A stretch of DNA of 64,000 bases from Candidatus Parcubacteria bacterium (GCA_027324805.1 DAHVRZ010000003.1:1294-65293), one strand, 5' to 3'. Counted from the stretch's first letter, positions 3,370 to 54,723 are shown. The notes: generated by a model from the letters alone, not told the origin. Made by a program: numbers and translations.

Positions 3370-4407
3370 ATGGCGTCCATAACGAAGCTCGTAAACACCG
3401 CGGTTGCAGGACTTAACCCCCGTCAAAAGGAGGTTATTTATGCCCGTTTCGGAATCGACAATGTTTCAGGGAAAGGCGGACAGACGTTAGCGGCGATCGG
3501 CGAGAAGCTCCATGTGACCCGCGAGCGCGTGCGCCAAATCGAGAACGGTGCCATTGTCGTTATTAAGCGCAATATCGGGCGTAGCCCCGAATTGGAGGCT
3601 GCGTTGTCCAAAATCGCAAAATTCATCGCCGGTAAAGGAGGTGTTGCGAAGAAGTCCGAGGTGGTTCGCTATGCGGCGACCATCGCCACGGGTGCCAAGG
3701 AAAACCATATCGACTTCCTCGCCGACGCTTCGGGTGTGTTTCATCTCTATCGCGAGGACGACGCGTTCCACCCTTTCTATTATGTCACCGAAAAAGATCT
3801 CAAGAATGTCCGCACGTTCGTTGAGGGATGGGTTGCATTCCTGAAGAACCGGAGGGATAAGGTCTTTGCCGAATCCTACGAGGTCCAACTCGCCGGCTTC
3901 ATGAAGACGAAGGCCATCGAGGGAGAGATCGCGGAAAATTACCTTTCTGTTTCAAAGCATATCCACAAGAACCCGTACGGGGACACCGGCCTCCGCGAAT
4001 GGCCCGAGATCAGTCCGTCGACGGTGCGCGACAAAATTTATCTTGTACTCAAAAAGAACGGTGAGCCGCTCCATTTCGAGGATATTGCGCGGCACATTAA
4101 TCTTGCGAAGTTCGATACCGAAAAGGCGCTTGCCCCTACGGTTCATAACGAACTTATAAAAGATAACCGCTTCGTGCTCGTTGGCCGCGGCCTTTACGGC
4201 CTGAAGGAGCACGGTTATGAACCGGGTACCGCGCGCGAAGTGATCGCGAAGATACTCAAGGGTAAAGGCGCTATGAACACCGCCGAGGTGATGGATGCGG
4301 TTAACAAGCAGCGCTTCTTCAAGCCGAACACGATCCTCATCAACCTCCAAAACCGGAACTTCTTCGAACGCATGCCGGACGGCAAGTATCGGGTCCGCGA
4401 ATCCTAA
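3370..4407 (+). CDS. Sigma-70 region-4-like HTH protein with a ~270 aa C-terminal domain of unknown function
   Basis: N-terminus has LNPRQKEVIYARFG...TLAAIGEKLHVTRERVRQIENGAI. This matches the sigma-70 region 4 / -35-binding HTH consensus (TLEEIG..xVTRERIRQIE). No sigma region 2 is present. Confidence 0.7.
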   Translation: MASITKLVNTAVAGLNPRQKEVIYARFGIDNVSGKGGQTLAAIGEKLHVTRERVRQIENGAIVVIKRNIGRSPELEAALSKIAKFIAGKGGVAKKSEVVRYAATIATGAKENHIDFLADASGVFHLYREDDAFHPFYYVTEKDLKNVRTFVEGWVAFLKNRRDKVFAESYEVQLAGFMKTKAIEGEIAENYLSVSKHIHKNPYGDTGLREWPEISPSTVRDKIYLVLKKNGEPLHFEDIARHINLAKFDTEKALAPTVHNELIKDNRFVLVGRGLYGLKEHGYEPGTAREVIAKILKGKGAMNTAEVMDAVNKQRFFKPNTILINLQNRNFFERMPDGKYRVRES

Positions 4408-4438: not shown

Positions 4439-4458
4439 ATCTGTTATAATTGCAGTAT

Positions 4459-5811
4459 ATGGATATAGTTTGGGGCATTCTGAGCGGTGCGGGAACCGTC
4501 CTTTATTACACCTGGTGGCTCTGGGTCTTTATCATTGCGGGACCGCTTTTTGTGGAGGTGTGGCTTTTTTGGAAACAGGAAACTTTCAAACATGATATCG
4601 ATTGGGTGCTCCTTGAACTTCGGATGCCGCGCGAGGTGCGCAAAAGTCCGATGGCAATGGAGCAGGTGCTCGCAGCATTGCATTCCCTTAGGAATGCGCC
4701 GGGCGACTTCCAGGAAAAATATTTGAATGGTGAGATAACGCGATGGTTCTCGCTCGAACTGGTAAGTCTTGGCGGTGAGGTTCACTTTTATATTCGTGCA
4801 CCGCGGGGACAAAAAGACCTCGTTGAGGCCGCATTTTTCTCATATTATTCCGACGTCGAGCTTGCGGAGGTGGATGATTATGTGAGCAATCTCCCGGAAA
4901 GTATGAATGAACTTTATGAAGGAGGATATGAGCTTTGGGGGACGGAGCTTGTCCTCGCCAAAAACGAGGCATATCCTATCAAAAGCTATCTTGACTTTGA
5001 AGCACCCGAGGAGGAAAAACAGTACGATCCCATTTCAATGTTTCTCGAGGTGCTCGGCAAGGCAAAGCGGGAGGAGTTCGTTGGCATCCAGTTCGAGATC
5101 GCGCCGGCAGGCGACGAATGGAAAACGCATGGCCAGCATGTGGTCGAGGAGCTTCGTTCGAAAAAAGAAGGCGGAGGACGCGGACCGGGCGCGAGTATGG
5201 GCATCGAATTCCCGCACATCCTTCCCACCTTTCCCGTCGAAAAGCACGACGGTAAAGAAGACAGTGCTATTTCGAAAATGTTTCTCCGAACTCCGGGCGA
5301 GACCGATGTATTGAAAGCGGTCGAAGAGAACCTTTCAAAGCCGGGATTCGAGACCGTAGTCCGTTTTGTCTACACCTCGCCCAAAGAGCTTTATGCCGAC
5401 ACGTTTGCCCGTCGCGGCGTCATCGGCGCTTTCAATCAATATGCTTCTAACGACCTCAATTCGTTCAAGCAGAACGAGTATATGAGTACAAGGGCGAAGG
5501 CATGGAAGTGGCCGCATATGTTTCCATCGCGTCGCGTGTATCTTCGTCGCGAGCGGATTCTGGAATACTATCGTCACCGCGAGATCCCACCGCACGTGGG
5601 CATCGGAAAGCATTTCCTCGGGAGGTTTATGAACGGCGAACATTCAGAGCACTTCATCATGACGACCCGGTCGCTTGCGACACTGTTCCACCCGCCGACC
5701 TATCTCGTGCTTACCGCGCCGCACGTCCGCCGCATCGAAAGCCGCAAGGCGGGTCCGCCGGCCGGTCTCCCGATCTATGGCGCCGAGGAAACTATCGAAA
5801 AATTCCGATGA
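4459..5811 (+). CDS. Hypothetical membrane-anchored protein (2 N-terminal TM helices plus ~400 aa soluble domain)
   Basis: Long ORF. ATG at 4459 (MDIVWGILSGAGTVLYYTWWLWVFIIAGPLFVEVWLFW) is preferred over the ORF-track TTG at 4450. Its stop overlaps the next start (ATGA at 5808-5811). Confidence 0.6.
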   Translation: MDIVWGILSGAGTVLYYTWWLWVFIIAGPLFVEVWLFWKQETFKHDIDWVLLELRMPREVRKSPMAMEQVLAALHSLRNAPGDFQEKYLNGEITRWFSLELVSLGGEVHFYIRAPRGQKDLVEAAFFSYYSDVELAEVDDYVSNLPESMNELYEGGYELWGTELVLAKNEAYPIKSYLDFEAPEEEKQYDPISMFLEVLGKAKREEFVGIQFEIAPAGDEWKTHGQHVVEELRSKKEGGGRGPGASMGIEFPHILPTFPVEKHDGKEDSAISKMFLRTPGETDVLKAVEENLSKPGFETVVRFVYTSPKELYADTFARRGVIGAFNQYASNDLNSFKQNEYMSTRAKAWKWPHMFPSRRVYLRRERILEYYRHREIPPHVGIGKHFLGRFMNGEHSEHFIMTTRSLATLFHPPTYLVLTAPHVRRIESRKAGPPAGLPIYGAEETIEKFR

Positions 5812-6341
5812 TACCCGCACCTCCTTCCTCATTTCCGACGACGTTCTGGGGCATCTACGATTTTGTCGGGGCGATGTTTATTATGGCCGACATCGTGCTC
5901 ATTATAGGACTCGCGTATTCAGTGGCGCGATCATGGCGATTCCGACCCGGTTTCCATGCCAGCGCGGCGCATGAACACAAAGGACCAAGCAAAGCGCCTC
6001 ACAAGCCGACGATGCACGATATCGTTATGCGTGAACGCTGGCAGTCGATCGTCCATAAATTCCACACCGGCACGCCTGAAGCGTCGCGTCTCGCAATCAT
6101 CGAGGCCGATTCGCTTGTGGATACTGCACTTAAGAACATGCGGATCGAAGGAGAGCATCTCGCCGACCGGCTTTCGAATCTTGAGGATGAGGATATTAAA
6201 TCCATGCAGAAGGTCTGGCGTGCACACCGCGTGCGCAATGACCTTGTGCACACGTCGGGATTCGCCATTGCGCCGCATGATGCGGAGCGGACCATGCAGG
6301 ATTACGAAGCGTTTCTGCGGGAAATAAACGTGATCGAATAA
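5808..6341 (+). CDS. Small single-pass membrane protein (178 aa) with a possible HEPN-like Rx4H motif
   Basis: Internal ATG at 5808 overlaps the upstream stop. The ORF-track extension to 5502 lies out of context inside the previous gene. TM helix FWGIYDFVGAMFIMADIVLIIGLAYSV. C-terminal region contains WRAHRVRNDLVHTSG. Confidence 0.55.
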   Translation: MIPAPPSSFPTTFWGIYDFVGAMFIMADIVLIIGLAYSVARSWRFRPGFHASAAHEHKGPSKAPHKPTMHDIVMRERWQSIVHKFHTGTPEASRLAIIEADSLVDTALKNMRIEGEHLADRLSNLEDEDIKSMQKVWRAHRVRNDLVHTSGFAIAPHDAERTMQDYEAFLREINVIE

Positions 6342-6345
6342 CGTC

Positions 6346-7827
6346 ATGCCGAAACCGGGAAAGATCCAGATCATCAAATATGCGCCGCCGCCGCCGGAGC
6401 TTCCGATATACGGACAGGTGGACCCTGCAGAGGCTTCGTTCATTGGCCGTACGAACTACGTTGCCGCGCTCGAGGAAAAGAAGTTTGTGTTTGGCATCAA
6501 ACGCGGGGATCGCAGGCGTCATCTTTATATTATCGGGAAGAGCGGGGTGGGCAAGTCGAAACTGCTCGAACTCCTGATCCGCCAGGACATCGGTTACGGC
6601 TACGGGCTTTGCCTCATGGACCCGCATGGCGACGTGATCGACGCGATCCTCGATTTTATTCCCGAAGACCGGATAAAGGACGTTGTGATCATCGATCCAA
6701 CCGATCTCGATCATCCGGCATCCTTCAATCCACTCCAGAACATCGATCCCAGTTTCAAGCATCAGCTTGCGCAAGGACTCATCGAGGTGATGGAAAAGCA
6801 GTTCGGGGCCAACTGGACCCCGCGCCTCGAGCACGTGTTTCGTTTCACCGTCCTCGCACTCCTTGATTATCCGCACGCGACGATGCGCGGCATGATTTCC
6901 ATGCTTACCGACCGAAATTACCGCCAGAAGGTCGTCGAATATATCGACGACGACATGGTGAAGCGCTTCTGGGCGATCGAATTCGCGGATTGGTCCGAGA
7001 AGTTCGATACCGATGCGATCATCCCTCTCGTGAACAAGCTCGGTCAGTTTTTGTCCGACCCGCTCCTACGTAATATCTTCGGGCAGAAGGAGAACAAGAT
7101 AAACCTCGAGGAGTTGATGAATCAAAAAAAGATCATTCTCATCAATCTCTCGAAGGGGCGTCTCGGCGAGGAGAACGCATCGTTTCTTGGTGCGATGTTC
7201 ATCACGAAGATCAAGCAGGCCGGCATGGCGCGCGCGGCGATCCCACAGAAGGATCGGCACGATTTCTATCTTTATGTGGACGAGTTCCATAATCTCGTGA
7301 CCGAAACGTTCGAGAACATTCTTTCCGAGGCGCGCAAATATGGTCTATGCCTTACGGTTGCGCACCAATATATGGGCCAGCTCATCCCGCGCGTTCAGAT
7401 GGCTGTGCTCGGCAACGTCGGCAGTATTATCGTATTCCGCGTCGGAGGCGAGGACGCCGTGCATCTTAAGCCGGAGATGGCCCCGATCTTCGACGTAAAG
7501 GATATGATCAACCTCGGCATGCAAGAGTTTTATATCAAGATGATGATCGATGGCGAAAGCTACGATCCCTTCTCGGCCGAGACGCTCAAGGTGCTCGAAC
7601 CGCCGCACCGTTCGTTCCGCAAGGAGATCATCGAGGAATCGCGGCGGAGGTATACCATTTCCGCCGATGCCGCAAAAAAACTCATTCAGGAAGAGGAGGC
7701 GGGTATCCTGCGGAGCGCCCAGGAAAAAAGCATTATCACGGGCGGCCGCGGGACCCACGGAAACCTTTCGGGCATGGGCTCTTCCGATAATAACGGCATT
7801 GACCAACCTCCCGAGCCGTTGATATGA
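6346..7827 (+). CDS. VirD4/TraG-like (type IV coupling protein-like) P-loop ATPase, HerA/FtsK superfamily, soluble
   Basis: Walker A IIGKSGVGKSK followed by the HerA/DUF87-type CLMDPHGD motif. Walker B LYVDEFHN. TraG-D_C-like C-terminal segment (AHQYMGQL...GNVGSIIVFRVGG). No TM helix. Starts 4 nt after the upstream gene. Confidence 0.8.
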   Translation: MPKPGKIQIIKYAPPPPELPIYGQVDPAEASFIGRTNYVAALEEKKFVFGIKRGDRRRHLYIIGKSGVGKSKLLELLIRQDIGYGYGLCLMDPHGDVIDAILDFIPEDRIKDVVIIDPTDLDHPASFNPLQNIDPSFKHQLAQGLIEVMEKQFGANWTPRLEHVFRFTVLALLDYPHATMRGMISMLTDRNYRQKVVEYIDDDMVKRFWAIEFADWSEKFDTDAIIPLVNKLGQFLSDPLLRNIFGQKENKINLEELMNQKKIILINLSKGRLGEENASFLGAMFITKIKQAGMARAAIPQKDRHDFYLYVDEFHNLVTETFENILSEARKYGLCLTVAHQYMGQLIPRVQMAVLGNVGSIIVFRVGGEDAVHLKPEMAPIFDVKDMINLGMQEFYIKMMIDGESYDPFSAETLKVLEPPHRSFRKEIIEESRRRYTISADAAKKLIQEEEAGILRSAQEKSIITGGRGTHGNLSGMGSSDNNGIDQPPEPLI

Positions 7828-7858
7828 TATAGTCATAAACCTTTAACGCACCAAGAGC

Positions 7859-8050
7859 ATGTTCGTTCCCTGGTGGATCATCATTCTTGTGGGACTTCTA
7901 CTTGTCTATTTGGTGCTTATGAATGCGCATCTTCACAAGCGCGTGCGGAAACTCGAATCCGTCGTCCGTCGTCTCGAAGGTGTGAGCGAGGAGGAGGTCA
8001 AGAAGCAGATCAAGGAGCGGATGACGCAATACGATGCCGGAGGGGATTAA
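7859..8050 (+). CDS. Small membrane protein (63 aa; TM helix plus charged coiled-coil tail)
   Basis: MFVPWWIIILVGLLLVYLVLM followed by a K/E/R-rich segment. Its 3' end overlaps the start of paralog 1. Confidence 0.45.
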   Translation: MFVPWWIIILVGLLLVYLVLMNAHLHKRVRKLESVVRRLEGVSEEEVKKQIKERMTQYDAGGD

Positions 8051-9842
8051 CGCTCCGACTGGCGAAACGCGCGCATGCGCGAACTGCGACACTCCGTTCG
8101 TCATTGAACCGGAGGATTTTTTGTTCTATGAACGGATGAAGGTGCCGCCACCGACATTCTGCCCGGACTGCCGGCTGCAGCGGCGGATGGTGTTTCGCAA
8201 CGAGAGAGCACTCTATAAACGGACATGCGATCTTTGTAAAAAAGCATTGATCGGTATTTATTCGGAAGGGACGCCATTCCCGGTCTATTGCAGCGAGTGT
8301 TGGTGGAGCGACAAATGGGACCCGGAAGATTATGCGATGGAATACGATTTCGGGAAGCCGTTCTTCGCGCAATGGAAAGAACTTCAAGATCGCGTCCCTC
8401 GGCAGCATACGAACAATACGGTGACGAGCACCATTGTGAACAGTGTGTATACAAATTGCGCGGGTGATATGAAAAATTGCTATCTCGTCTTCGGTGCCAT
8501 GAACGACGAGGATAGTATGTATTCCCATTATCTCAACTATTCCCGATTCTGTGTCGATGATTTGTACGTCCTGAATTCCGAACATTGCTATGAGTGCGTT
8601 GATGTCGAACAATGCAACAATGTCCGCTGGTCCCAGTCGTGCCTCGGGTGTCGGGATTCGGCGTTCCTCTTCGATTGCCGCAACTGCAATGACTGTATCG
8701 GGTGCGTCGGCCTCCGCAATAAGCAATATCATATTTTCAATAAGCCTTACTCGAAGGAAGGATATATAAAAGAAAAAGAGAGCCTCGGGCTCGACTCCCG
8801 CGCCGGCATCGGACGATTCCGCGAACGATTTATGCGCGAACTCTATTACAAACTTCCGCGCAAGCATTATCACGGACAGATGAATAAGGATTCGACGGGG
8901 GACTATCTTTCGAATTCCGAACGTACCGAGTCCGCCTTCTATACCAAAAATGCCCGCGGTTCGAAGTATATTTTCTGGGCGCAAAATGTAAATGACGTAT
9001 ACGATTATTTCGCATGGGGCGATATGGAACTTTGCTGCGAATGCGTTTCCGGCGGCTACGGCATGCATAACTGCAAATTCACCCACACATGCTGGACAGA
9101 GCTTCGCAATGTCGATTATTCAAGTCTTTGCTTTACAGGGTCGGACCTTTTCGGATGCATCGGTATGAGAAACAAGCGTTTCTGCGTGCTCAACAAGCAA
9201 TATGGCGAAGCGGAATATCGCGATATGCGGGCGCGCATCCTGGCGCAGATGGATATTGTGCCGTATCGGGATGCACAAGGGATCGAATACCGTTATGGGG
9301 AGAATTTTCCGATCGAGCTTTCGCCTTTCGCATATGCCGATACGGTTGCACAGGAGCATTTTCCGCTTTCGTCTGACGAGATCGCGACGCGCGGTTACGG
9401 CAAGCAGGGGGCGCAGGATCATGCGAATAATGCAGTGACAAAGGGCGCGGTGGACCTCCCGGACTCCATCGAAAATGTTTCGGATACGATCCTTGATGAG
9501 GTCATCGGGTGCGCGCACAACGGGTTGTGCACGCATCAGTGTTCCAACGCATTCCGGATCATTCCCGCGGAATTGGAGTATTATCGCCACAAAGATATCC
9601 CACTACCCATGCTTTGCCATAATTGCCGCCACGGGGAGCGCGTGGCCCTCCGCAATCCTCTGAAACTTTGGCATCGGAAATGCCGCTGCTCCGGCGTACG
9701 GGATGAAGAGGGGTTGTATGTGAATAGGGGAGCTCATTTCCACGGCAAGGATGCATGCCCGAACGAATTTGAGACCTCCTATGCGCCAGACCGGCCCGAG
9801 ATCGTCTATTGCGAACAGTGCTACAACAGCGAAATCGCCTGA
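8034..9842 (+). CDS. Cysteine-rich multi-zinc-ribbon protein, paralog 1 of 5 (602 aa)
   Basis: N-terminal CxxC-x27-CxxC plus CxxC-x17-CxxC (CANCDTPFVIEPEDF...TFCPDCRLQRR...CDLCKK...PVYCSECWWSDKWDP). Internal Cys repeats end in GC.G.RNKxYxIxNKxYxxEEY. C-terminal ribbons FRIIPAELEYYRH..PLPMLCHNCRH...LWHRKCRC...CPNEFETSY..RPEIVYCEQCY. No signal peptide. Confidence 0.8.
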   Translation: MPEGINAPTGETRACANCDTPFVIEPEDFLFYERMKVPPPTFCPDCRLQRRMVFRNERALYKRTCDLCKKALIGIYSEGTPFPVYCSECWWSDKWDPEDYAMEYDFGKPFFAQWKELQDRVPRQHTNNTVTSTIVNSVYTNCAGDMKNCYLVFGAMNDEDSMYSHYLNYSRFCVDDLYVLNSEHCYECVDVEQCNNVRWSQSCLGCRDSAFLFDCRNCNDCIGCVGLRNKQYHIFNKPYSKEGYIKEKESLGLDSRAGIGRFRERFMRELYYKLPRKHYHGQMNKDSTGDYLSNSERTESAFYTKNARGSKYIFWAQNVNDVYDYFAWGDMELCCECVSGGYGMHNCKFTHTCWTELRNVDYSSLCFTGSDLFGCIGMRNKRFCVLNKQYGEAEYRDMRARILAQMDIVPYRDAQGIEYRYGENFPIELSPFAYADTVAQEHFPLSSDEIATRGYGKQGAQDHANNAVTKGAVDLPDSIENVSDTILDEVIGCAHNGLCTHQCSNAFRIIPAELEYYRHKDIPLPMLCHNCRHGERVALRNPLKLWHRKCRCSGVRDEEGLYVNRGAHFHGKDACPNEFETSYAPDRPEIVYCEQCYNSEIA

Positions 9843-9852
9843 GACTTTTTCC

Positions 9853-11559
9853 ATGAACGCCGAAGAAAAGACCTGTCAGAATTGCAAAGCGGCGTTCACG
9901 GTTGAGCCGGAGGATTTTTCATATTATGAGAAAGTGAAGGTGCCGCCGCCGACGTTCTGCCCGGACTGCCGGCTGCAGCGCCGGCTCGCATTCATGAATC
10001 TCTCGAACCTTTACCGCCGGAAATGCGATCTTTGTAAAAAGGACGGGCTATCCATGTTCCACCTCTCTGCGCCGTACAGAGTATATTGCCACGAATGCTG
10101 GTGGTCGGACGCATGGGATCCTTTCGAGTATGGCCGCGATGTGGATTTCAGCAGGCCATTCCTAGAGCAATATAACGAGCTTTTGCACGAAGTGCCCGTT
10201 ATTGGGCTTACGGTTGACACGACGAACGTGAATTCGCCATACGTGAACCTTGCGGGACACGTAAAGAATTCATATCTCATATTTCATGCCGACTTCGACG
10301 AGGATTGCCTCTATGGATTTTATGTCGTGAACAATAAGAGCCTCGTCGATTGCTCGCTCATGATGAACTCGGAGCTCTGCTACGATTCCATGCACGCGTA
10401 CAAGTGCAGTGGATGTGTCGGATTGCGAAGCCAGGTGACGGAGTCGCTGAACAGCGCCTTCCTTAAGGATTGTGATAATTGCCAGGATTGCTTCGGGTCG
10501 GCGAATCTTCGAGGGAAGAAATACTATATCTTCAATGAGCCGTATTCCCGCGAGGGATATATCGAGGAGATGAAAAAGTGGAACCTTGGCTCATATGCGA
10601 TTTACAAGGATGCCGAACGCCGCGCGAACGAGGCATGGAAGAGCGTGCCGCCATGCCCGTATTTCATGGATTTCTCGGTGAACTGTACGGGGAATAATAT
10701 TTTCGAATCGAAGAACTGCAGGGATTCGTTCGAAGTGATCGCCGCCCAGGATTCGCGGTTTGTCATGATGCAATATCTGCCGACCACGAAAGATTGTTAT
10801 GACACGACGAGTTGGGGGAATAATGCGTCGCTGTGCTATGAGGCATCGAATGTCGGAGAAGGTGCGGCACAGGTCCGTTTTTCGCAGGAGTCGGGGATTA
10901 ATGCGTTCGATATCGAGTACTCGAAAGCGGCGCTGAACGGCGCGCGGCACCAGTTCGGATGCAGTGCCATCCGCAAAACGCCGTACTGCATCCTCAATAA
11001 GGCCTATTCGGAAAATGAATACAAGATACTTCGGAAGAAGGTGATCGCACATATGGACGCGATGCCGTATACCGATATGGCGGGAAATATTTATCGCTAC
11101 GGTGAATTTTTTCCGCTGGAATTCATGCCGTTCCCGTACAATATTACCCTGGCAAACAGCTTCTTTCCGCTCGCCAAAGAAAAGGCGGTGGCGAAAGGAT
11201 TGCGTTGGCATGATGACGAACCGTCGACGTATGCGACAACAATAAAGGCCGCCGACCTCCCCGATCATATCAGGGATATCGATGATGCCATCCTGAAGGA
11301 AGTGATTGCTTGTGCGAAGTGCGGTCGGGGGTATCGTGTCATCGAAGCAGAGCTGCGTTTTCTGAAGGGCCGCAATCTGCCGTTGCCGCGCGAGTGCCCG
11401 TTCTGCCGTATTGCGGAAAAGATAGGGCTTTGGGCGGCACGCCGGAAAATGACGGAGCGAAACTGCGCGGAATGCGGCGCGACATTCGAGGCGTGCTATA
11501 CCCAGGCCGAAGCGCCGCGGATCCTTTGTAAAAGCTGCTGGCAGAAACAGCTTCCGTAA
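9853..11559 (+). CDS. Cysteine-rich multi-zinc-ribbon protein, paralog 2 of 5
   Basis: Start taken at internal ATG (MNAEEKTCQNCKAAFTVEPEDF...), which matches the other paralogs. The ORF-track start at 9751 overlaps paralog 1. Same conserved N- and C-terminal Cys motifs. Confidence 0.8.
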   Translation: MNAEEKTCQNCKAAFTVEPEDFSYYEKVKVPPPTFCPDCRLQRRLAFMNLSNLYRRKCDLCKKDGLSMFHLSAPYRVYCHECWWSDAWDPFEYGRDVDFSRPFLEQYNELLHEVPVIGLTVDTTNVNSPYVNLAGHVKNSYLIFHADFDEDCLYGFYVVNNKSLVDCSLMMNSELCYDSMHAYKCSGCVGLRSQVTESLNSAFLKDCDNCQDCFGSANLRGKKYYIFNEPYSREGYIEEMKKWNLGSYAIYKDAERRANEAWKSVPPCPYFMDFSVNCTGNNIFESKNCRDSFEVIAAQDSRFVMMQYLPTTKDCYDTTSWGNNASLCYEASNVGEGAAQVRFSQESGINAFDIEYSKAALNGARHQFGCSAIRKTPYCILNKAYSENEYKILRKKVIAHMDAMPYTDMAGNIYRYGEFFPLEFMPFPYNITLANSFFPLAKEKAVAKGLRWHDDEPSTYATTIKAADLPDHIRDIDDAILKEVIACAKCGRGYRVIEAELRFLKGRNLPLPRECPFCRIAEKIGLWAARRKMTERNCAECGATFEACYTQAEAPRILCKSCWQKQLP

Positions 11560-11565
11560 CGCATA

Positions 11566-13353
11566 ATGATAGAAAATATGGAAACAAAGGTTTGTGCGAA
11601 TTGCGGAACGAAGTTCGAAGTCTCGTCCCAGGCGTCGGCGTTCCAGGCGAAGATCGGGGTGCCCTCGCCAACGTTCTGTCGCGACTGCCGCGTGGCGCGC
11701 CGCATGGCATTCCGCAATGAACGAGTGCTTTATAAAAAGAAGTGCGACGCGCCGGGGCACGATGAGATGATTGTTTCCGTCTTTGCGACGGAGAGCAAGC
11801 AACGCACCTACGACCACGCGGCATGGTGGGGTGACGCATGGGATCCTCTCGATTATGGTCGCGATATTGATTTCACCAAGCCGTTTCTCCAGCAGATCAG
11901 GGAGCTTTGGCCCGAGGTGCCTGACGTTTCGGTTCTCAATATCAACCCGGTAAACAGCGATTACTGCAACATCACCGAAGGTAACAAGAACTGCTATCTC
12001 GTTTACGGCGGCGACTTCAATGAGAACACGTCCTATTCGACCTATATCTTTCGCAGTAAGGAGTCGCTCGACACGTATTGGATACAGAACTCAGAATTCA
12101 ATTATGAGACGATTGATTGCACCGAAGGTTCGAAGCTCCTCTGGAGCCGCTACTGCGAAGGCTGTTATAACAGTGCATTCTTGTTCAATTGTCGCCACTG
12201 CCACGACTGCTTTGGCTGCGCGAATCTCGTGAATAAATCCTACTGCTTTTTCAATGAGCAGCTTACCAAGGAGGAATATGAAAAAAGGATCAAGGAATTC
12301 GATCTCTCAAGCCATGAGGGTGTGGAGCGAGCAAGGGCCCGATTCGCGGAACATTCCCTCAAATATCCCCGGCGTTTTGCGCGGATGATCAAGGCGGTGA
12401 ATTCGACCGGCGACAATATTGAGAATTGCCGCAATTGCGAGCGCTGTTTCGATGTTTTCCAGGGTGCCGAAAATTGCTCGGACGTTTTCCTTGTCTATTC
12501 GAACGTGAAGGACAGCATTGATGCGGACCACTGCGGACAGGCAAGCGAGCTCGCATACGAATCCTCGGCGGTGTATCCGGGCAGTCGCGTGCTTTTCTCG
12601 CGTTTCATCTTTAATGCGAATAATATCCAGTATTCCTACAACTGCCACAACTCCAACGATCTTTTCGGATGCATCGGTATCCGCAACAAGCAGTACTGCA
12701 TCCTCAACAGGCAATATTCAAAAGAAGAGTACGAGGGACTGGTGCCGAAGATCATCCGGCATATGAAGGAAATGCCGTATATTGACAGTCGGGGCATAAA
12801 ATACGGCTACGGAGAATTCTTTCCTGTGGAATTTTCACCGTTCGCATACAATGAGACGATCGCGCAGGAAATGTACCCGATCTCCCAAGGGCAGGCGGAA
12901 CAGTATGGCCTCCCGTGGCGCGCCCCGGAAGAAAAAGGATATGCGCCGACGAAGCACGCAAATGAACTTCCTGATCGCATTGCGGATGTGGACGATTCGA
13001 TCCTTAAGGAGATCATCGAGTGCTCGCACGGAGGAAATTGCAACGATCAGTGCACGAGGGCGTTCCGGATCATACCCTCAGAGCTTGCGTTCTACCGCCA
13101 TCTTGGCATTCCGCTCCCGCGCCTTTGTCCGATGTGCCGACACTTCGAGCGTGTCCGCCGGCGCAATCCGTATCGCCTCTGGCACCGGAAGTGCCAGTGT
13201 GCCGGAGCGGCGACCGAGAGAGGGGATTATAAGAATCTTGGCATGCATGCGCACGGCCAAGCGCACTGCGCGAATGAATTCGAAACGAGCTACGATCCGA
13301 AGCGGCCGGAAGCCGTATATTGCGAGGAGTGCTACCAGCAGGAGGTTATGTGA
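11566..13353 (+). CDS. Cysteine-rich multi-zinc-ribbon protein, paralog 3 of 5
   Basis: MIENMETKVCANCGTKFEV...TFCRDCRVARR...WWGDAWDP. The second N-terminal ribbon is degenerate: its Cys residues are lost. C-terminus FRIIPSELAFYRHLGIPLPRLCPMCRH...LWHRKCQC...CANEFETSYDPKRPEAVYCEECY. Confidence 0.8.
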   Translation: MIENMETKVCANCGTKFEVSSQASAFQAKIGVPSPTFCRDCRVARRMAFRNERVLYKKKCDAPGHDEMIVSVFATESKQRTYDHAAWWGDAWDPLDYGRDIDFTKPFLQQIRELWPEVPDVSVLNINPVNSDYCNITEGNKNCYLVYGGDFNENTSYSTYIFRSKESLDTYWIQNSEFNYETIDCTEGSKLLWSRYCEGCYNSAFLFNCRHCHDCFGCANLVNKSYCFFNEQLTKEEYEKRIKEFDLSSHEGVERARARFAEHSLKYPRRFARMIKAVNSTGDNIENCRNCERCFDVFQGAENCSDVFLVYSNVKDSIDADHCGQASELAYESSAVYPGSRVLFSRFIFNANNIQYSYNCHNSNDLFGCIGIRNKQYCILNRQYSKEEYEGLVPKIIRHMKEMPYIDSRGIKYGYGEFFPVEFSPFAYNETIAQEMYPISQGQAEQYGLPWRAPEEKGYAPTKHANELPDRIADVDDSILKEIIECSHGGNCNDQCTRAFRIIPSELAFYRHLGIPLPRLCPMCRHFERVRRRNPYRLWHRKCQCAGAATERGDYKNLGMHAHGQAHCANEFETSYDPKRPEAVYCEECYQQEVM

Positions 13354-13390
13354 CAAAAAAAGACCCGCCAAACCAAAAAGGTTCGTCGGG

Positions 13391-14014
13391 TCAGGATAGA
13401 GCGATCATGGGACGCTGTTTCCGCTTCAGTATCCAAATGAAGACAAGAACAGTGGAGCACATCATCATGGCGCGGATGGGATAGAGCGTCGCAAGGAGAT
13501 CGTGGCCCGAAGCCGCAACATAGATGCCAAGGATCGCGGCGGCCATTTCCGCGGTCCAAATGGACGGCGGCTCCGGCGTGCCCGGCCGCTTCCATGTCCA
13601 CAGTCGGCGATAGGTCGGATAATAGGCGACCGTCATGACGACCTGGAACCCTCCGACGCCCACGAGCGGCATATGCACCTCCAGCCAGGCAATGAAGGTT
13701 GCGGCGGAGATGGCAAGGCATATCCATTCGTTCGGATGGAATCGGATGCCTTCCTTTCGGTTTTTCACAATGAGCGTCCCGAGAATGAAGGTCACTGCGA
13801 GACAGTCCGTCGTATTCGCGACGTTGCGCACAAGATCGTGCGACGGCGCCGAAAGATAGGTGACGAGGCTCATGATGACGCCTATTTCAAAGATGATCCA
13901 GGTTGCGATCGGCGGATGCGCTTCTCCGCGGGCGATCTTCAGACAATAGGCCCCTCCCATGAAAAGGATAAGGGAGGCGGACGCCATCGCCGCAAAGGAT
14001 GGGAGCAGTCCCAT
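13391..14014 (-). CDS. Polytopic integral membrane protein (about 6 TM helices), hypothetical; opposite strand inside the array
   Basis: 207-aa ORF with repeated hydrophobic helices. Convergent with paralog 3 and divergent from paralog 4. Confidence 0.55.
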   Translation of the reverse strand: MGLLPSFAAMASASLILFMGGAYCLKIARGEAHPPIATWIIFEIGVIMSLVTYLSAPSHDLVRNVANTTDCLAVTFILGTLIVKNRKEGIRFHPNEWICLAISAATFIAWLEVHMPLVGVGGFQVVMTVAYYPTYRRLWTWKRPGTPEPPSIWTAEMAAAILGIYVAASGHDLLATLYPIRAMMMCSTVLVFIWILKRKQRPMIALS

Positions 14015-14102
14015 AACATCCTCCAGGGAGTGGATTTGCTGGCCGAATTATAACCAATGTACGCAATTTATGCAATATGGTACGATAAGCGATATTGAGC
14101 AT

Positions 14103-15836
14103 ATGGATCAGACGACCGCAACCTGCACGAGCTGTAAATCGCCGTTCGTGATCGAATCCGATGACCTCATTTTCTATAAAAAATTCGGTGTCCCTGCGCC
14201 GAAGATGTGCTTTTTTTGCCGTTCGCGTCTCCGCCTCGCATTCAAGAATGAACGATCGTATTACCATCGAAGGTGCGACAAATGCGGTAAAGAAACCATC
14301 TCGATGTACAGCACGAATAAACCATATGCCGTATGGTGCTACGATTGCTGGTTCTCCGATGATTGGGATGCCGCGGAATATGCGCGGGACTATGATCCTT
14401 CAAAACCGTTTCTTGAACAATTCGCCGAACTTTGGCGCTCGATGCCCAAGGTAGCACTCATCGGCGTTCGCAACGTGAACTCCGAGTATGTGAATATTTC
14501 GGCGGACAATAAGGAATGTTATATGATCGTGGAATCTTCGAACAATGAGAATTGCGCCCATTGCTATTGGATCCAACAATGCCATGACTGCGTTGACACT
14601 TCGTTTGCGCACCGCACGGAACTTTCCTATGAGAGCGACGATTGCTATAGCTGCTATGGTTTACGCTACAGCAAAGGATGCAGTGACAGCCGGGACAGTT
14701 TTTTTCTCCTTGATTGTCGGGGATGTTCGGATTGCATCGGTTGCATGAATCTTCGCAATAGAAAATATTGCATATTCAACGAGCAACTCACAAAGGAGGA
14801 ATATGAGAAGGCGAAGGACGGTATGCGGCTCGATACGGCGAGCGGTGTCGCGGCGGTCGGGAAGAATTTTTCAGACTTTGTGAAAACCCAGCCACTTCGT
14901 TATGCGGAGGTCTACAACGCTCCCGGATCGAGCGGCGATTATATCAACAATGCGAAAAATTGTCGTTATTGTTTTCATTGCTATGAATCCGAGGATTCTA
15001 AATACGGCGTCCATGTATGGGAAGGGGCGAAGGACTGCATGGATGTCGATACTGCCGGCCGCGGCGCCGAACACGTATACAATGCCATCAATTCCGGCAT
15101 CAATGTTTCGCATTACGTAGGTACGGCCGTCTGCTGGAGCTGTTCGTTCATGGAATATTCCTATTATTGCTTCAATTCAAACCATTGCTTCGGTTCCGTT
15201 GGACTCAGGAAAAAAGATTATCACATTCTTAATAAGCCATATGAGAAGGAGGAATTTGAAGTGTTGAGAGGAAAAATAGTCGCCGAGATGCGGGGAAAAG
15301 GGGAATATGGAGAATTTTTCCCGCCGGCCATAAGCACATTCGGTTACAACGAAAGTGCTGCGCAGGAGCAGTTTCCCCTTACGAAGGAAGGGGCCATCGC
15401 GCTCGGATTCTCATGGGAAGATACGCCGCGCGGAACATTTGGCAAAGAGACCATAGCATGGGAGAGCATCCCCGACTCGATACGGGACCTCGGAGCCTTG
15501 GATCCGGCAAAGGAAGTGTTTTTGTGCACCAAGTGTTCGAAGAACTATCGGATTATCCCGGCCGAACTGCAATTCTATAAGCGGCTCGAGATACCTTTAC
15601 CGCGGCTTTGCCCCGATTGCAGGCATGAACGCCGCTTTGCCGCGCGCGGACCGAACCAGCTCTTTGAGCGCTCATGTAGCTGTTCGGGGTATGGATTGGC
15701 CGGTAGCACCTATGCGAACGCTTCGCGCCATTTCCATGGCAATGGCGAATGTCCCAACAAATTTATGACAAATTATACTCCAGATTATGATGGCATGGTG
15801 TACTGTGAGCAATGCTATAACGCTGAAATTACATGA
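14103..15836 (+). CDS. Cysteine-rich multi-zinc-ribbon protein, paralog 4 of 5
   Basis: Start at ATG 14103 (MDQTTATCTSCKSPFVIESDDLIFYKKFGVPAPKMCFFCRSR...; ATG 14070 is an alternative). The ORF-track start at 13959 overlaps the minus-strand membrane gene. Family motifs conserved through the C-terminal ...GMVYCEQCYNAEIT. Confidence 0.8.
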   Translation: MDQTTATCTSCKSPFVIESDDLIFYKKFGVPAPKMCFFCRSRLRLAFKNERSYYHRRCDKCGKETISMYSTNKPYAVWCYDCWFSDDWDAAEYARDYDPSKPFLEQFAELWRSMPKVALIGVRNVNSEYVNISADNKECYMIVESSNNENCAHCYWIQQCHDCVDTSFAHRTELSYESDDCYSCYGLRYSKGCSDSRDSFFLLDCRGCSDCIGCMNLRNRKYCIFNEQLTKEEYEKAKDGMRLDTASGVAAVGKNFSDFVKTQPLRYAEVYNAPGSSGDYINNAKNCRYCFHCYESEDSKYGVHVWEGAKDCMDVDTAGRGAEHVYNAINSGINVSHYVGTAVCWSCSFMEYSYYCFNSNHCFGSVGLRKKDYHILNKPYEKEEFEVLRGKIVAEMRGKGEYGEFFPPAISTFGYNESAAQEQFPLTKEGAIALGFSWEDTPRGTFGKETIAWESIPDSIRDLGALDPAKEVFLCTKCSKNYRIIPAELQFYKRLEIPLPRLCPDCRHERRFAARGPNQLFERSCSCSGYGLAGSTYANASRHFHGNGECPNKFMTNYTPDYDGMVYCEQCYNAEIT

Positions 15837-16105
15837 TTGAAACCGACATAGCGAATGAAATAAATACGATTAAAGAACGTAATCGTCGCGTGGAAGCGGA
15901 TAAGGCTTGGGAGAGGAGTATGCTTCGGATAGGCTCTATCACCGTTATCACATATATCATTGCGGCGTTCGTTATGTATACTATCGGGGTCAATGGATAT
16001 CTCCTGAATGCACTCATCCCGTCCATTGGATATTTTCTCTCCACTCAATCGCTTCCTGCAATAAAACAATGGTGGATCCGCCGTTGCTATAAAAAAGAGA
16101 AATGA
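15833..16105 (+). CDS. Small membrane protein (90 aa), translationally coupled on both sides
   Basis: ATGA overlap with the paralog 4 stop (15833-15836) and with the paralog 5 start (16102-16105). N-terminal charged helix followed by 2 hydrophobic segments. Confidence 0.5.
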   Translation: MIETDIANEINTIKERNRRVEADKAWERSMLRIGSITVITYIIAAFVMYTIGVNGYLLNALIPSIGYFLSTQSLPAIKQWWIRRCYKKEK

Positions 16106-17895
16106 ACGCCGCCGAAACAAAGATCTGCTTAAACTGCGATGCGGTCTTCACTATTGAGCTGGAGGATTTTGCGTTCTACGGTAAATTGAACGTTCCACCG
16201 CCAACGCGATGCCCCCGCTGCCGGCTTCGGCGACGGCTTTCCTTCATGAACGAGCGGTCGCTTTACCGAAGCATATGCGCACATTGCGGGAAGAAGATCC
16301 TCTCGGTTTTTTCGCCAGGCTCCCGCCGCCTCGTATACTGTCCTGCTTGCTGGTGGTCTGATGTCTGGGATCCGATGGACTACGGCACCCAATACGATTT
16401 TTCGCGCCCATTCTTCGCCCAATACAGGGAGCTTCTCGAAAGGATCCCGCATCCTTCGCGGGAAACGGTCGAAAGCACTCTCGTGAACAGTGATTATTGC
16501 AATATCACGTCGTACCTCAAAAATTCTTACCTCGTCTTCAATTCGGACTATGATGAGGATTGTGCGTACAGCTCTTACTTGGAACGAAGTTCCCGTTGTG
16601 TTGATATTACGATGGGAGATCTTTCGGAACTTTGCTACGAAAGCCATAATATCTACAAATGCAATCGCGTTATTTTCTCCGACAACTGCAATGAGTGTGT
16701 CGACGTCGCATTCTCGAAGGATTGCATTGGATGCGAACATTGCTTCGGATGCGTGAACCTGCGAAACAAGCAGTATTATATTTTCAACCGGCCATTCACC
16801 AAAGAGACGTATTTCCAGGAGATTGAAAAATACGACATTGGATCGTATAGGGTCCGGCAGGAACTGACCGAACGACTCAATGCGCTCAGCCGCTCCCTGC
16901 CCAAACGATATGCGCATGGCCTTAAAAATCTGAATGTGAAGGGGGATTTCATTTTCAATTCCAAAAATGTCACGGAAAGCTATGAGGTGACCGACGCGAA
17001 GGACTGCAAATACTGTCATTTCCTTTTCATCGCCTCCACAAACGATGCTTATGATTTTACGATGTGGGGCGGGGGTGCCGAGCGCGTATATGAATGCATG
17101 GGTACCGGAGGAGGGCAGAGCGATATCCGTTTCTGTTACGAATGCTGGTCCTCCGATACGCGCAATCTCGAATACTGTATGTATTCTCAAGGAAGCGACC
17201 TTTTCGGATGCATGGGGGTGCGAAAGAAACAGTATTGCATTCTCAATAAACAATATTCAAAAGAGGAATACGAGGCGCTCCACAGCCGGATACTTGAGCA
17301 GATGAGATCAATGCCTTACATTGACGCAAAGGGAAATACGTATTCGTACGGCGAATTTTTTCCATCGGAAATATCGCCATTCAATTATCGCGAGACGATG
17401 GCGCAGATGTACTTTCCGCTTACGCAGGCGGAAGTTGTCGCGCAGGGATTCAATGGCAAGCATTTTGACGAGGCGAAGCATTACGATATAAGCATTGACG
17501 CCCCCGGATTGCCGGACAACATAAAAGACGTTCGGGATTCTATAACCGATGAGATTATAGGATGCGTCCATCGGGGGACATGCGGGGAGCAGTGCACGAC
17601 GGCGTTCAGGATCACGCCGACCGAACTTGAGTTCTATCGGCATATGGGCTTGCCTCTGCCGAGGTTATGTCCCAATTGCCGTCATTATGCACGGTTGTCC
17701 GACGGTCCCGGTTTGGATTTTTTCGAACGGCAATGCATGTGTCTTGGTCAAAGCTCCAAAGAGGGGCATTATCGGAACCTCTCGGTGCACGCTCACGGCG
17801 TTCATCCATGCACCAACACCTTTGAAACCGCGTATGCTCTCGATCGTCGCGAGACCGTCTATTGCGAACAGTGCTATCAGGCGGAAACGGTATGA
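16102..17895 (+). CDS. Cysteine-rich multi-zinc-ribbon protein, paralog 5 of 5
   Basis: MNAAETKICLNCDAVFTIELEDFAFYGKLNVPPPTRCPRCRLRRR...LVYCPACWWSDVWDP...FRITPTELEFYRHMGLPLPRLCPNCRH...CTNTFETAY..RRETVYCEQCY. Confidence 0.8.
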   Translation: MNAAETKICLNCDAVFTIELEDFAFYGKLNVPPPTRCPRCRLRRRLSFMNERSLYRSICAHCGKKILSVFSPGSRRLVYCPACWWSDVWDPMDYGTQYDFSRPFFAQYRELLERIPHPSRETVESTLVNSDYCNITSYLKNSYLVFNSDYDEDCAYSSYLERSSRCVDITMGDLSELCYESHNIYKCNRVIFSDNCNECVDVAFSKDCIGCEHCFGCVNLRNKQYYIFNRPFTKETYFQEIEKYDIGSYRVRQELTERLNALSRSLPKRYAHGLKNLNVKGDFIFNSKNVTESYEVTDAKDCKYCHFLFIASTNDAYDFTMWGGGAERVYECMGTGGGQSDIRFCYECWSSDTRNLEYCMYSQGSDLFGCMGVRKKQYCILNKQYSKEEYEALHSRILEQMRSMPYIDAKGNTYSYGEFFPSEISPFNYRETMAQMYFPLTQAEVVAQGFNGKHFDEAKHYDISIDAPGLPDNIKDVRDSITDEIIGCVHRGTCGEQCTTAFRITPTELEFYRHMGLPLPRLCPNCRHYARLSDGPGLDFFERQCMCLGQSSKEGHYRNLSVHAHGVHPCTNTFETAYALDRRETVYCEQCYQAETV

Positions 17896-17942: not shown

Positions 17943-20105
17943 ATGGCTCCTTTGTCACCTCAATCGACCGAACTCGAGAACAACGTCATTTATTTTGCGA
18001 GGACGAATTTCAGGAATTCGAGCCATCTTTTCGGTATCAAGCGCGCCGACCGGAGGCAACATACCTATGTGGTAGGGAAGACGGGTACGGGCAAAAGCTC
18101 GATGCTCAATAATATGATCGTGCAGGACGTTGCGAATGGCGAAGGTGTTTGTGTGGTTGACCCCCACGGCGAGCTTGTCGAAGGCATCCTCGACAAAATC
18201 CCCGAGGAGCGCATGAAGGATGTGGTCTATTTCAATCCGGCCGATCCCGATTTTCACGTCGGTTTCAATATCCTTGAGCTTCCCGACCCGAAATATAAGC
18301 ATCTTGTCGCCTCGGGCCTTATGGCCATCTTTACGAAAATATGGGCGGGTGTGTGGTCCGCCAGGATGGAATACATACTTAATAATTGCATTTTAGCGCT
18401 CCTCGATACGCCGGGCTCGACGCTTCTCGGCATTCCGCGGCTCCTGAGCGACAAAACCTACCGGCAGAAGATCATCGGGAATGTAAAAGATCCCGTGGTG
18501 AAGGCGTTTTGGATAAACGAGTTCGAGAGCTGGCAGGACCGGTTCCGCAATGAGGCGATCGCGCCGATCCAAAACAAAGTGGGACAGTTCCTTTCGACGT
18601 CGCTCGTACGCAACATCGTCGGACAGTCGAAGAGCACGATCGATGTGTTCGATATCATGAACGAAGGAAAGATATTCCTTGTGAACGTCTCGAAGGGGCG
18701 CATCGGCGAGGACAACTCCGCGCTTCTCGGCGCAATGCTCATCACGAAGATCCAGCTCGCCGCCATGGAACGCGTGCGTATCCCCGAAGAAGACCGCGTG
18801 GATTTTTATCTTTACGTCGACGAGTTCCAGAACTTTGCGACCGACTCCTTTGCGGGGATCTTGTCGGAAGCGCGCAAATACCGCCTTAACCTCACGCTCG
18901 CGCACCAGTATATCGGACAGCTTGTGACCGATACCTCGACGCGCGTACGCGATGCTATTTTCGGCAACGTGGGGACGATGATCGTATTCCGCGTCGGGGC
19001 TACGGATGCGGAATTCCTCGAAAACGAATTTTCCCCGGAGTTTACAATCGAGGACATTGTAAACCTGCCAAACTACCATATCTATATCAAACTCATGGTG
19101 GACGGGGTGACCGCAAGACCATTCTCGGCAATGACATTGCCGACATTCAAGGTAAAGTCCTCCGAGGTTATGCAGGAAGATATCATTAAGATGTCCCAGA
19201 AGTATTATGCCCGGCCGCGCGAGGCGATCGAGGCCGAGATCAATCGTTGGAGCGGCATTATGGACGCCGCCGGCTCTCCCGTCGAAGCCGCTCCAAGCGG
19301 AGGGGGGAGCGGCGGATCCGCGGAGCGGCCGGTGACGACGCCGGATGGCTTGGTGCAGAAGACCGCGCCGATTGCAACCGCTTCCGGCATCCGCTATCAG
19401 GCTGTTTGTTCGTCGTGCGGCAACCTTACGACGCTTCCGTTCGAACCGACACCCGGCCGCCCCGTCTATTGTCGGGATTGCATGAAGAAAATCGAATCAG
19501 GGGAGATAAAACCCGTCCGCGCAACATGGAGTCCTTCAAAAGGATCTTCGGTTCGCGCAAAAGAACGATCCACCGAGGCGCTGAGTCGTCTCGGCATCGA
19601 ATTCGCCGCGGAAGAGCCATCGCATTCGTCCGACGGCTCTTCAATGCCTCCCCGACAACCTTCAATGCCGCTGCCCCGCCGTCCACGGAGACCGATCGGT
19701 CCGACACCCGCCCCTTCATCATTACCGGATTCGATCCCGTCGAAGAGTCCTTCGAAGCCCGTTGCGCCACGATCCTTGGCAACACAACCGTCTTCGGGAG
19801 GATCGGAGGCGCAACAAGAGACCATTTCGCTTGTCGAACTTACGAAGCCGCAAGAGAAATCGGTTCAAAAATCAAAACATCCTCCCCATGCCGAAGTGAA
19901 TATCGCATCCCTGCGCGATGCCATCCGCGCATCGCTTGCCGCGGATCTCGGCGCCGCGTCGTCCGGTGATGCATCCGATGACGGTTTTGGAGTGACACCT
20001 CCGCTGTCGGAAAACGATGTCGCCCGGCCAAAGGAATCTCCGGCGGCGAATGTAAATAACGACGATGAAGACTACGAAGAAGACCATTCGCGCCGGAACC
20101 GTTAA
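17943..20105 (+). CDS. VirD4/TraG-like P-loop ATPase (paralog of 6346-7827) with C-terminal zinc ribbon and long disordered P/S/acidic tail
   Basis: Walker A VVGKTGTGKSS followed by CVVDPHGE. Walker B LYVDEFQN. AHQYIGQL...GNVGTMIVFRVGA. C-terminal CSSCGNLTTLPFEPTPGRPVYCRDCMKK (CxxC-x18-CxxC), then ~210 aa low-complexity tail ending NNDDEDYEEDHSRRNR. Confidence 0.8.
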   Translation: MAPLSPQSTELENNVIYFARTNFRNSSHLFGIKRADRRQHTYVVGKTGTGKSSMLNNMIVQDVANGEGVCVVDPHGELVEGILDKIPEERMKDVVYFNPADPDFHVGFNILELPDPKYKHLVASGLMAIFTKIWAGVWSARMEYILNNCILALLDTPGSTLLGIPRLLSDKTYRQKIIGNVKDPVVKAFWINEFESWQDRFRNEAIAPIQNKVGQFLSTSLVRNIVGQSKSTIDVFDIMNEGKIFLVNVSKGRIGEDNSALLGAMLITKIQLAAMERVRIPEEDRVDFYLYVDEFQNFATDSFAGILSEARKYRLNLTLAHQYIGQLVTDTSTRVRDAIFGNVGTMIVFRVGATDAEFLENEFSPEFTIEDIVNLPNYHIYIKLMVDGVTARPFSAMTLPTFKVKSSEVMQEDIIKMSQKYYARPREAIEAEINRWSGIMDAAGSPVEAAPSGGGSGGSAERPVTTPDGLVQKTAPIATASGIRYQAVCSSCGNLTTLPFEPTPGRPVYCRDCMKKIESGEIKPVRATWSPSKGSSVRAKERSTEALSRLGIEFAAEEPSHSSDGSSMPPRQPSMPLPRRPRRPIGPTPAPSSLPDSIPSKSPSKPVAPRSLATQPSSGGSEAQQETISLVELTKPQEKSVQKSKHPPHAEVNIASLRDAIRASLAADLGAASSGDASDDGFGVTPPLSENDVARPKESPAANVNNDDEDYEEDHSRRNR

Positions 20106-53406: not shown

Positions 53407-53447
53407 TGTAGCACAATGACCGGTCGTGTTTACGGATGATCACAACC

Positions 53448-54716: not shown

Positions 54717-54723
54717 GATATTC

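Follow-up and report, generated by a model that had tools for sequence, protein, structure and literature searches.

Patescibacteria have genomes of about 1 Mb with very little redundancy, and the locus described here raises the question of what five tandem genes for large cysteine-rich proteins of one family do in such a genome. The genes occupy positions 8034–17895 of a 64,000-nucleotide stretch of DNA from Candidatus Parcubacteria bacterium (GCA_027324805.1, DAHVRZ010000003.1:1294–65293; hereinafter the window, with positions counted from its first letter). Some lineages hold up to nine copies of about 1.8 kb each in one array, which by a rough estimate amounts to about 2% of a genome of about 1 Mb; costly and conserved, the family likely matters for epibiont biology. 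The analysis characterizes a well-supported Patescibacteria-specific family of zinc-capped double beta-solenoids and tentatively assigns its members to cytoplasmic zinc-stabilised scaffold or adaptor subunits working with an exapted VirD4/TrwB-like ATPase module, an assignment that we prefer without considering it probable.

Five tandem genes of a Patescibacteria-specific family

The five open reading frames (ORFs) are co-directional, lie on the plus strand, and encode products of 568–602 amino acids (aa): paralog 1 (8034–9842, 602 aa, subfamily S3; 866 bits against the family hidden Markov model, HMM), paralog 2 (9853–11559, 568 aa, S5, a short form), paralog 3 (11566–13353, 595 aa, S0), paralog 4 (14103–15836, 577 aa, S7), and paralog 5 (16102–17895, 597 aa, S1), the modelled protein, whose numbering is used below for domain boundaries and residues. 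The start of paralog 2 is that of a deposited gene at 9853, the protein being identical to homologue P0002 from GCA_021793615.1 (contig JAJYSK010000002.1), and the mechanical ORF start is 9751. For paralog 4 the start is, judging by the fit to the family N-terminus, most likely the ATG at 14103, with 13959 in the mechanical ORF list. The intergenic gaps along the array are 10, 6, 749, and 265 nt, followed by 47 nt to the downstream ATPase gene. The paralogs share 37–47% pairwise identity and score 697–889 bits against the family HMM, far beyond chance, so that the tandem paralogy claimed in a preliminary description of this DNA, which was based on sequence only, holds; direct repeats at the DNA level recover the common blocks and the internal duplication. 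Each paralog has 32–38 Cys (5.6–6.6% of residues) and 10–18 His, aromaticity of 0.13, and an isoelectric point (pI) of 5.7–6.1; the net charge of the terminal caps ranges from -5 to +6 and is not consistently positive.

Between paralogs 3 and 4 the array is broken by a minus-strand ORF (13391–14014, 207 aa, about six hydrophobic segments), for which no Pfam or NCBIfam match was found. It has a single homologue among 83 related loci (L038, 20972–21571), and hence does not regularly accompany the arrays.

A profile search of 5.8 billion proteins yielded more than 6,247 matches (more than 6,000 clusters at 90% identity); those listed are about 570–630 aa long, and the ones named by their source are all 'hypothetical protein'. 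Taxon names among the listed matches are Paceibacterota, Jorgensen-, Lipton-, Uhr-, and Pacebacteria, Minisyncoccia, and 'Patescibacteria group'. The HMM search of 1.84 billion representatives at 50% identity gave 5,344 matches at E ≤ 1e-3 and 2,304 at E ≤ 1e-30; the best 150, which were listed, have the same architecture and are all canonical and full-length. At least 582 family loci were confirmed in GTDB species genomes, and the taxon-named records among the 80 loci listed are all from Patescibacteria with one exception. This is a 7.4-kb contig of an 'uncultured Gammaproteobacteria' (locus L019, CAYJLM010000079.1), on which two complete copies of the family and one additional short match were found; the contig is probably mis-binned, since the family is otherwise exclusive to Patescibacteria. 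No homologue was found in IMG/VR, among INPHARED phages, or in PLSDB plasmids. Specificity of the family to Patescibacteria is thus well supported.

The family had been described as unrecognised, and this assessment stands. No entry of Pfam, NCBIfam, PADLOC, PHROGs, or PDB, by sequence profile or by fold, covers the core of about 400 aa; PADLOC anti-phage defence HMMs do not match the family, PHROGs gives only two marginal short matches (E about 1e-3), and we found no published description of the family in the literature.

For comparison of loci we used the 80 best matches to paralog 5; the fetched loci number 83 and, with the window, there are 84 sources. At least two copies within ±10 kb, the span in which array copies were counted, are present in 55 of the 84 sources; copy number ranges from 1 to at least 9, the largest array being nine tandem copies (L021), and nearly all copies are on the same strand. 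The window paralogs are 51–72% identical to proteins of other genomes and only 37–47% identical to their array neighbours, and one protein found elsewhere (P0001) is 89–90% identical to paralog 1. The composition of arrays is S3-S5-S0-S7-S1 in the window and S15-S2-S5-S7-S1 in L003. It is therefore well supported that the five genes represent five old subfamilies held together in operon-like arrays, not recent copies. Recent amplification, or arrays of fast-evolving variable genes, was considered and rejected, as orthologues from other genomes are closer than array neighbours. In three loci a family gene is split into two adjacent ORFs (L010, 1790–3535; L017, 6596–7692; L080, 525–2339); frameshifts, pseudogenes, or errors of assembly may be behind this, which would suggest some turnover of array genes.

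Pseudo-duplicated architecture

The domain order in paralog 5 is as follows: N1, a treble clef (aa 1–52); N2, a CxxC-x17-CxxC module (aa 53–100); solenoid repeats R1 (aa 106–244) and R2 (aa 257–396); a conserved linker (aa 399–483); and the modules C1 (aa 484–536) and C2 (aa 537–597). Profile–profile comparison with hhalign aligns R1 with R2 with probability 99.9% (E 6e-36), bearing out the two internal repeats noticed earlier, and shows that the N-terminal module (aa 1–104) is homologous to the C-terminal one (aa 470–597; probability 99.3%, E 3e-20). Each solenoid repeat, about 140 aa long, closes with a conserved FGCxGLRNKxYCILNxxY hairpin and a helix. Each protein is thus, with good support, a pseudo-duplicated unit: a zinc module pair, two beta-solenoid repeats, a linker, and a homologous zinc module pair.

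In the AlphaFold2 model of paralog 5, built on an alignment of 123 sequences, the protein is a single compact body with a core of short-stranded coils (predicted local distance difference test score, pLDDT, 89.6; predicted template modelling score, pTM, 0.91), R1 being weaker (pLDDT 66–78); the model of paralog 3 has pLDDT 86.9 and pTM 0.88. According to DSSP, the second CxxC of each of the four terminal modules is located at the start of a helix: C37/40 in helix 38–46, C80/83 in helix 81–84, C523/526 in helix 524–534, and C588/591 in helix 589–596; in N1, C9/C12 are accompanied by strands 5–8 and 15–18. Because of this position of the second CxxC in the model, and because the only Pfam families matched are zf_Tbcl and zf_Tbcl_2, the terminal modules are, as far as the model goes, of the treble-clef type. 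The twin zinc modules proposed for both termini are hence retained as pairs, whereas their interpretation as rubredoxin-like ribbons is not. Foldseek found no PDB match to the paralog 5 model below E 0.18, and among BFVD viral models it found matches only to zinc-ribbon proteins of 40–70 aa.

Conservation peaks in N1, the two hairpins, and part of the linker, and is lowest in the solenoid rungs: the entropy of alignment columns averages 1.5 bits in N1 and 0.9–1.6 bits in the hairpins vs. 2.2–2.35 bits in the solenoids. Neither a hydrophobic segment nor a signal peptide was seen in the five paralogs, the maximum Kyte–Doolittle mean over 19 residues being below 1.0 in all of them, in agreement with the preliminary description; the proteins are, with good support, soluble and cytoplasmic.

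Cysteine columns and putative zinc sites

Column statistics were derived from an alignment of 426 full-length members. Three Cys4 sites are near-universal: N1 (C9/12/37/40, occupied in 97–99%), C1 (C488/498/523/526, 92–100%), and C2 (C545/570/588/591, 99%). Other ligands occur as sets: C62/80/83 of N2 are present all-or-none (r = 1.0) in 53% of members, with the fourth N2 position, C59, retained in 83%; the optional sets C547/H563/H565 (77%) and H490/C494 (59%) likewise show r = 1.0. Clustering shows the states of these ligand sets to be subfamily signatures. In paralog 1 all terminal zinc modules are complete and the C208/211/214/217 cluster is present; paralog 2 has neither C547/H563/H565 nor H490/C494; in paralog 4, H490/C494 and the C370/C379 pair are missing.

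Only 16 Cys columns are conserved at 90% or more, and these are the cap sites and the hairpins. The remaining solenoid columns contain Cys in 25–85% of members, are mutually uncorrelated (r about 0–0.3), and swap Cys with Ser, Val, Thr, Ala, or Leu. As these residues are uncorrelated and freely swapped with Ser, Val, or Thr, the alignment suggests that most solenoid cysteines are packing residues of core ladders and not fixed metal sites, contrary to the earlier suggestion that numerous additional CxxC pairs bind metal. The exceptions are C211/C214 (92–96%) with C208/C217 (77–86%) at the end of R1, and C370/C379 (92–95%) at the end of R2, which may be further, putative sites. Fixed zinc tetrads or disulfide pairs formed by solenoid cysteines were considered and rejected, since the columns do not co-occur.

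Conserved N- and C-terminal blocks had been assigned to all five proteins, which is not literally true; paralog 3 departs from the F.IE.EDF.FY block and, at aa 60–88, has the second N-terminal module minus three cysteines, with C-x2-P-G-H...Y-D-H in place. The missing cysteines had been noticed and taken for divergence after duplication. The orthologues of paralog 3 in other genomes, 62–72% identical, are in the same N2-less state, and C62/C80/C83 behave all-or-none across the alignment; to judge by these sequences, the N2 'loss' is therefore an old subfamily trait and not recent decay. The paralog 3 model retains the fold of this module (pLDDT 91–96 over aa 56–100), and the motif of the N2-less subgroup could be an alternative Cys/His/Asp ligand set.

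We infer zinc binding by the caps from the conservation of the ligands and by analogy with small CxxC-x17-CxxC proteins of Methanosarcina mazei, which bind Zn as measured by inductively coupled plasma mass spectrometry (PMC12704099). In one 731-aa homologue (P0262), the only fusion among the best 150 matches, the N-terminus is GNAT-like, half of the Cys ligands are gone, and every terminal CxxC has a different residue in place of its second Cys (C-x2-S, C-x2-E); this may be a zinc-free fusion variant or an artefact of a merged gene call.

Comparison with known families

The only Pfam or NCBIfam families matched, at the termini, are zf_Tbcl (PF13451) and zf_Tbcl_2 (PF23477)/TIGR04272; the corresponding curated cut-offs are 24 (gathering), 27, and 36 bits, and the family-wide scan covered 73 members. 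N2, C59-x2-C62-x17-C80-x2-C83, has the exact spacing of zf_Tbcl_2, as does the last module of paralog 2, which lacks an insert of about 22 aa and thus forms a plain CxxC-x17-CxxC. The best-scoring part of paralog 5 (aa 52–84) has 25.5 bits for PF23477 and 21.9 bits for TIGR04272; PF23477 is found at E ≤ 0.01 in 19 of the 73 members. PF13451 gives 13.4–13.5 bits for paralogs 4 and 5, and is found at the same threshold in 16 of 73 (best E 3.7e-6); a precomputed PF13451 match exists in 3 of 120 homologues. In sequence and model, the caps hence resemble zf_Tbcl/zf_Tbcl_2 in spacing and in treble-clef topology, but score below the cut-offs and so are not members by score. Besides, zf_Tbcl-type modules make up only about 200 of the approximately 600 residues; in the known families such domains mostly constitute small proteins by themselves or are appendages.

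The core, tested as a secreted antifreeze helix, a hexapeptide acyltransferase, or a metallothionein, fails each test. Insect antifreeze beta-helices (CfAFP, 1m8n; TmAFP, 1ezg), the ryegrass ice-recrystallization inhibitor IRI (3ult), and CsgA (8c50) are secreted, disulfide-bonded, and have ice-binding or amyloid faces; the family differs from such short beta-solenoids in having no signal peptide and no pair-correlated or fixed Cys columns, with 5–13% identity and no significant Foldseek similarity. No Hexapep match, as would be expected for left-handed beta-helix (LbH) acyltransferases (LpxA/LpxD, GlmU, PglD) or gamma-carbonic anhydrases, was found in the 73 members, no catalytic His motif was seen, and there are two solenoids in one zinc-capped chain in place of the trimers of LbH enzymes. 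Metallothioneins are small, with about 20–30% Cys and few aromatic residues, unlike these proteins of 568–602 aa. Two homologous solenoids with paired treble-clef zinc modules capping both ends would be a new architecture for beta-solenoid proteins, and its combination with arrays located beside orphan coupling-protein ATPases is undescribed.

Genomic context and VirD4/TrwB-like ATPases

The gene order in the window is secD, secF, a sigma-like gene, a gene for a DUF8128-like protein, a gene for a small membrane protein, ATPase 1, the five paralogs, ATPase 2, trmD, and comEC. Both ATPases are VirD4/TrwB-like, that is, similar to type IV coupling proteins (T4CP). The gene of ATPase 1 (6346–7827, plus strand; 493 aa, soluble) is directly upstream of the array, and this gene flanks arrays in other genomes too; that of ATPase 2 (17943–20105, plus strand; 720 aa) immediately follows it. 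ATPase 2 has a long Pro/Ser-rich tail and, at aa 485–516, a finger scoring 54.1 bits for PF23477 and 56.1 bits for TIGR04272, above both cut-offs. An HMM of the N2 module matches, outside the family, only the ATPase fingers.

The sandwich in which an array is enclosed by an ATPase and a finger-containing ATPase is also seen in L001 (one copy) and L003 (five copies), and it persists in two gene orders: beside secDF and the sigma-like gene, and between dnaK and dnaJ. The latter order is observed in Nomurabacteria-type genomes (L022, L031, L040, L046, and L076). No neighbour comes close in frequency to the cluster of ATPases and DUF8128-like proteins, present in 37 of the 84 sources at a median distance of 374 bp; single-linkage clustering fused these two kinds of proteins, which is corrected by separate phmmer counts. 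Adjacency, defined as an ATPase within 3 kb of an array, is found for 29 of the 83 loci and, where an array has at least four copies, for 11 of 19, compared with a few percent expected by chance for about two such genes per genome of about 1 Mb, this expectation being a rough estimate from published counts and not a measured background. All 32 adjacent ATPase–family pairs are co-directional.

Other genes of this block are the following. The DUF8128-like protein (4450–5811, plus strand) has one N-terminal hydrophobic segment, and PF26449 is found on its orthologues. Together with ATPase 1 it matches the phage family phrog_5156 (824 aa, fused), the two proteins corresponding to its N- and C-terminal halves; hence the coupling-protein-like unit is split here and fused in some phages, and the DUF8128-like protein is probably its membrane-anchoring half. 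A small single-pass membrane protein (5805–6341, plus strand, about 178 aa; neighbour cluster c5) is encoded between the DUF8128-like gene and ATPase 1, with counterparts in nine loci. A protein with sigma-70 region 4 and a HARE-HTH domain (RNA polymerase delta-like; 3370–4407, plus strand) is encoded upstream of the DUF8128-like and ATPase genes in 11 related loci and in the window. CutA1, a protein of divalent-ion tolerance, is encoded directly upstream of arrays in nine loci (e.g., L021, 4367–4681), with a median distance of 34 bp, including some loci of the secDF order; it is absent from the window.

Like the partners of T4CPs (VirD4/TrwB/TraD), the family genes lie beside VirD4-like ATPases and run in the same direction, although the proteins have no sequence or fold similarity to known T4CP adaptors, relaxases, or effectors. 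The ATPases themselves differ from T4CPs in being distant, soluble, split, and not located beside a channel of a type IV secretion system (T4SS): they have no membrane domain of their own, score far below the NCBIfam cut-offs for T4CPs, and show a weak CedD-like match. No virB4 or channel genes were found among the window ORFs scanned against Pfam, and no virB4-like gene in the annotated neighbour clusters. In a 2025 survey, 5,713 VirD4-like T4CP homologues were found in 2,918 genomes of Patescibacteria, only 148 of them near virB4, and their exaptation 'cannot be ruled out' according to the authors (PMC12102498). The recurrent position of the arrays between such ATPases, which are abundant and mostly unlinked to T4SS genes, provides the family with a concrete candidate partner.

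Possible functions

The preferred assignment, to subunits working with the ATPases, is proposed because adjacency is enriched, occurs in two gene orders, is strictly co-directional, and is accompanied by a common finger domain. In this mechanism, the conserved caps, hairpins, and linker would form a constant chassis, while the variable solenoid faces, differing by subfamily, would give each paralog its own specificity. Jointly, the paralogs would serve as scaffold or adaptor subunits of the neighbouring split ATPase module, in which ATPase 1 and ATPase 2 are combined with the small membrane protein and with the DUF8128-like protein as membrane anchor, and would probably present ligands to the motor or regulate it, the motor being, on this view, exapted from conjugation in Patescibacteria.

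Several observations weigh against this assignment. Of the 30 loci in which the array is flanked by 5 kb or more on either side, only six have an ATPase within 3 kb; dispersed copies exist, e.g., in L002 beside uvrC and fmt/def; and the idea that one particular subfamily always adjoins the ATPases was rejected, as the neighbours come from S0, S1, S2, S4, S8, S12, and others. The synteny may in part be a gene order inherited within Parcubacteria-type lineages. The sample of loci is skewed toward relatives of paralog 5, and genes were called as simple ORFs. The tie between the family and the ATPases, which for these reasons we regard as possible and somewhat short of probable, is based on gene neighbourhood and the common finger. 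More doubtful is the wider proposal that the solenoid arrays, the DUF8128-like anchor, the small membrane protein, and the two ATPases constitute a new Patescibacteria-specific machine exapted from conjugation, in which the old zinc-capped paralogs would be client-recognition or structural subunits; if true, it would explain roughly two 'orphan' T4CP homologues per genome of Patescibacteria.

The dispersed copies, many of them far from any ATPase, fit with a stand-alone hetero-oligomeric scaffold or filament of cytoplasmic beta-solenoids, for which the adjacent ATPases would be inherited synteny. Bactofilins polymerise, and ring complexes use paralogous subunits; such an assembly would agree with the pseudo-symmetric architecture with homologous caps at both ends, and with arrays of distinct old subfamilies in partly conserved order and with gene spacing of 6–10 nt. 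However, it leaves the enrichment of strictly co-directional ATPases in two gene orders unaccounted for, and a copy number varying from 1 to at least 9 is unusual for a fixed stoichiometry; we consider it unlikely, although deserving serious attention. Another suggestion, prompted by the Cys and His content of proteins present in 5–9 copies per array and by the nine loci with CutA1 directly upstream, is a metallothionein-like sink that buffers or stores Zn, Cu, or Cd in organisms with few metal-homeostasis genes. The proteins have just about 6% Cys and 13% aromatic residues, however, and only the 16 Cys columns of the cap sites and hairpins are highly conserved, the solenoid ones being uncorrelated and exchanged for Ser, Val, or Thr. 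A specific fold-dependent role is favoured by the stability of the old subfamilies and by the large number of conserved residues that are not ligands, which makes buffering improbable.

Two further possibilities also involve the ATPases. The paralogs might be effectors recruited by the VirD4-like ATPases and delivered to hosts: their genes adjoin T4CP-like ATPases, the absence of a Sec signal is typical of T4SS substrates, and Patescibacteria live as epibionts and have a conserved T4SS (PMC12102498). On the other hand, channel genes were not seen in the Pfam-scanned window ORFs or annotated neighbour clusters, most of the T4CP homologues lie at a distance from virB4, and Southlakia does not require its homologue for epibiotic growth (PMC12102498). 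Moreover, the ATPases here have no membrane domain of their own, and the paralogs do not evolve fast but are old and conserved from genus to genus. Proteins with a tight multi-zinc fold also make poor translocation substrates, and so we give export little credence. TrwB-type ATPases are DNA translocases, and the four zinc modules might accordingly bind DNA or RNA and aid DNA translocation or uptake by FtsK/TrwB-type motors; the conserved Arg after the second CxxC (CRxxRR, CRHxxR), the weak CedD-like match, and comEC 0.7 kb downstream of ATPase 2 point in this direction. This, too, is a poor prospect given the acidic pI, the inconsistent charge of the caps, and the lack of a match to any known nucleic-acid-binding family, while a comEC group was not seen among the neighbour clusters common to many loci. 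The same mild and inconsistent charge weakens DNA mimicry and general nucleic-acid binding.

Other features of the window

A regulatory scan was uninformative, with 20 promoter-like sites vs. 14.6 expected and 13 terminator-like sites vs. 15.5 expected. The best promoter-like site of the region (10 of 12 matches, extended -10 TG) is a consensus match only; it is located on the plus strand at 7799–7828, 206 nt ahead of paralog 1. Elsewhere in the window, two pilin-like proteins with an N-terminal methylation motif and a Laminin_G_3 domain are encoded beside a DUF11 repeat protein (50955–55959, minus strand); these genes probably form a surface cluster related to type IV pili.

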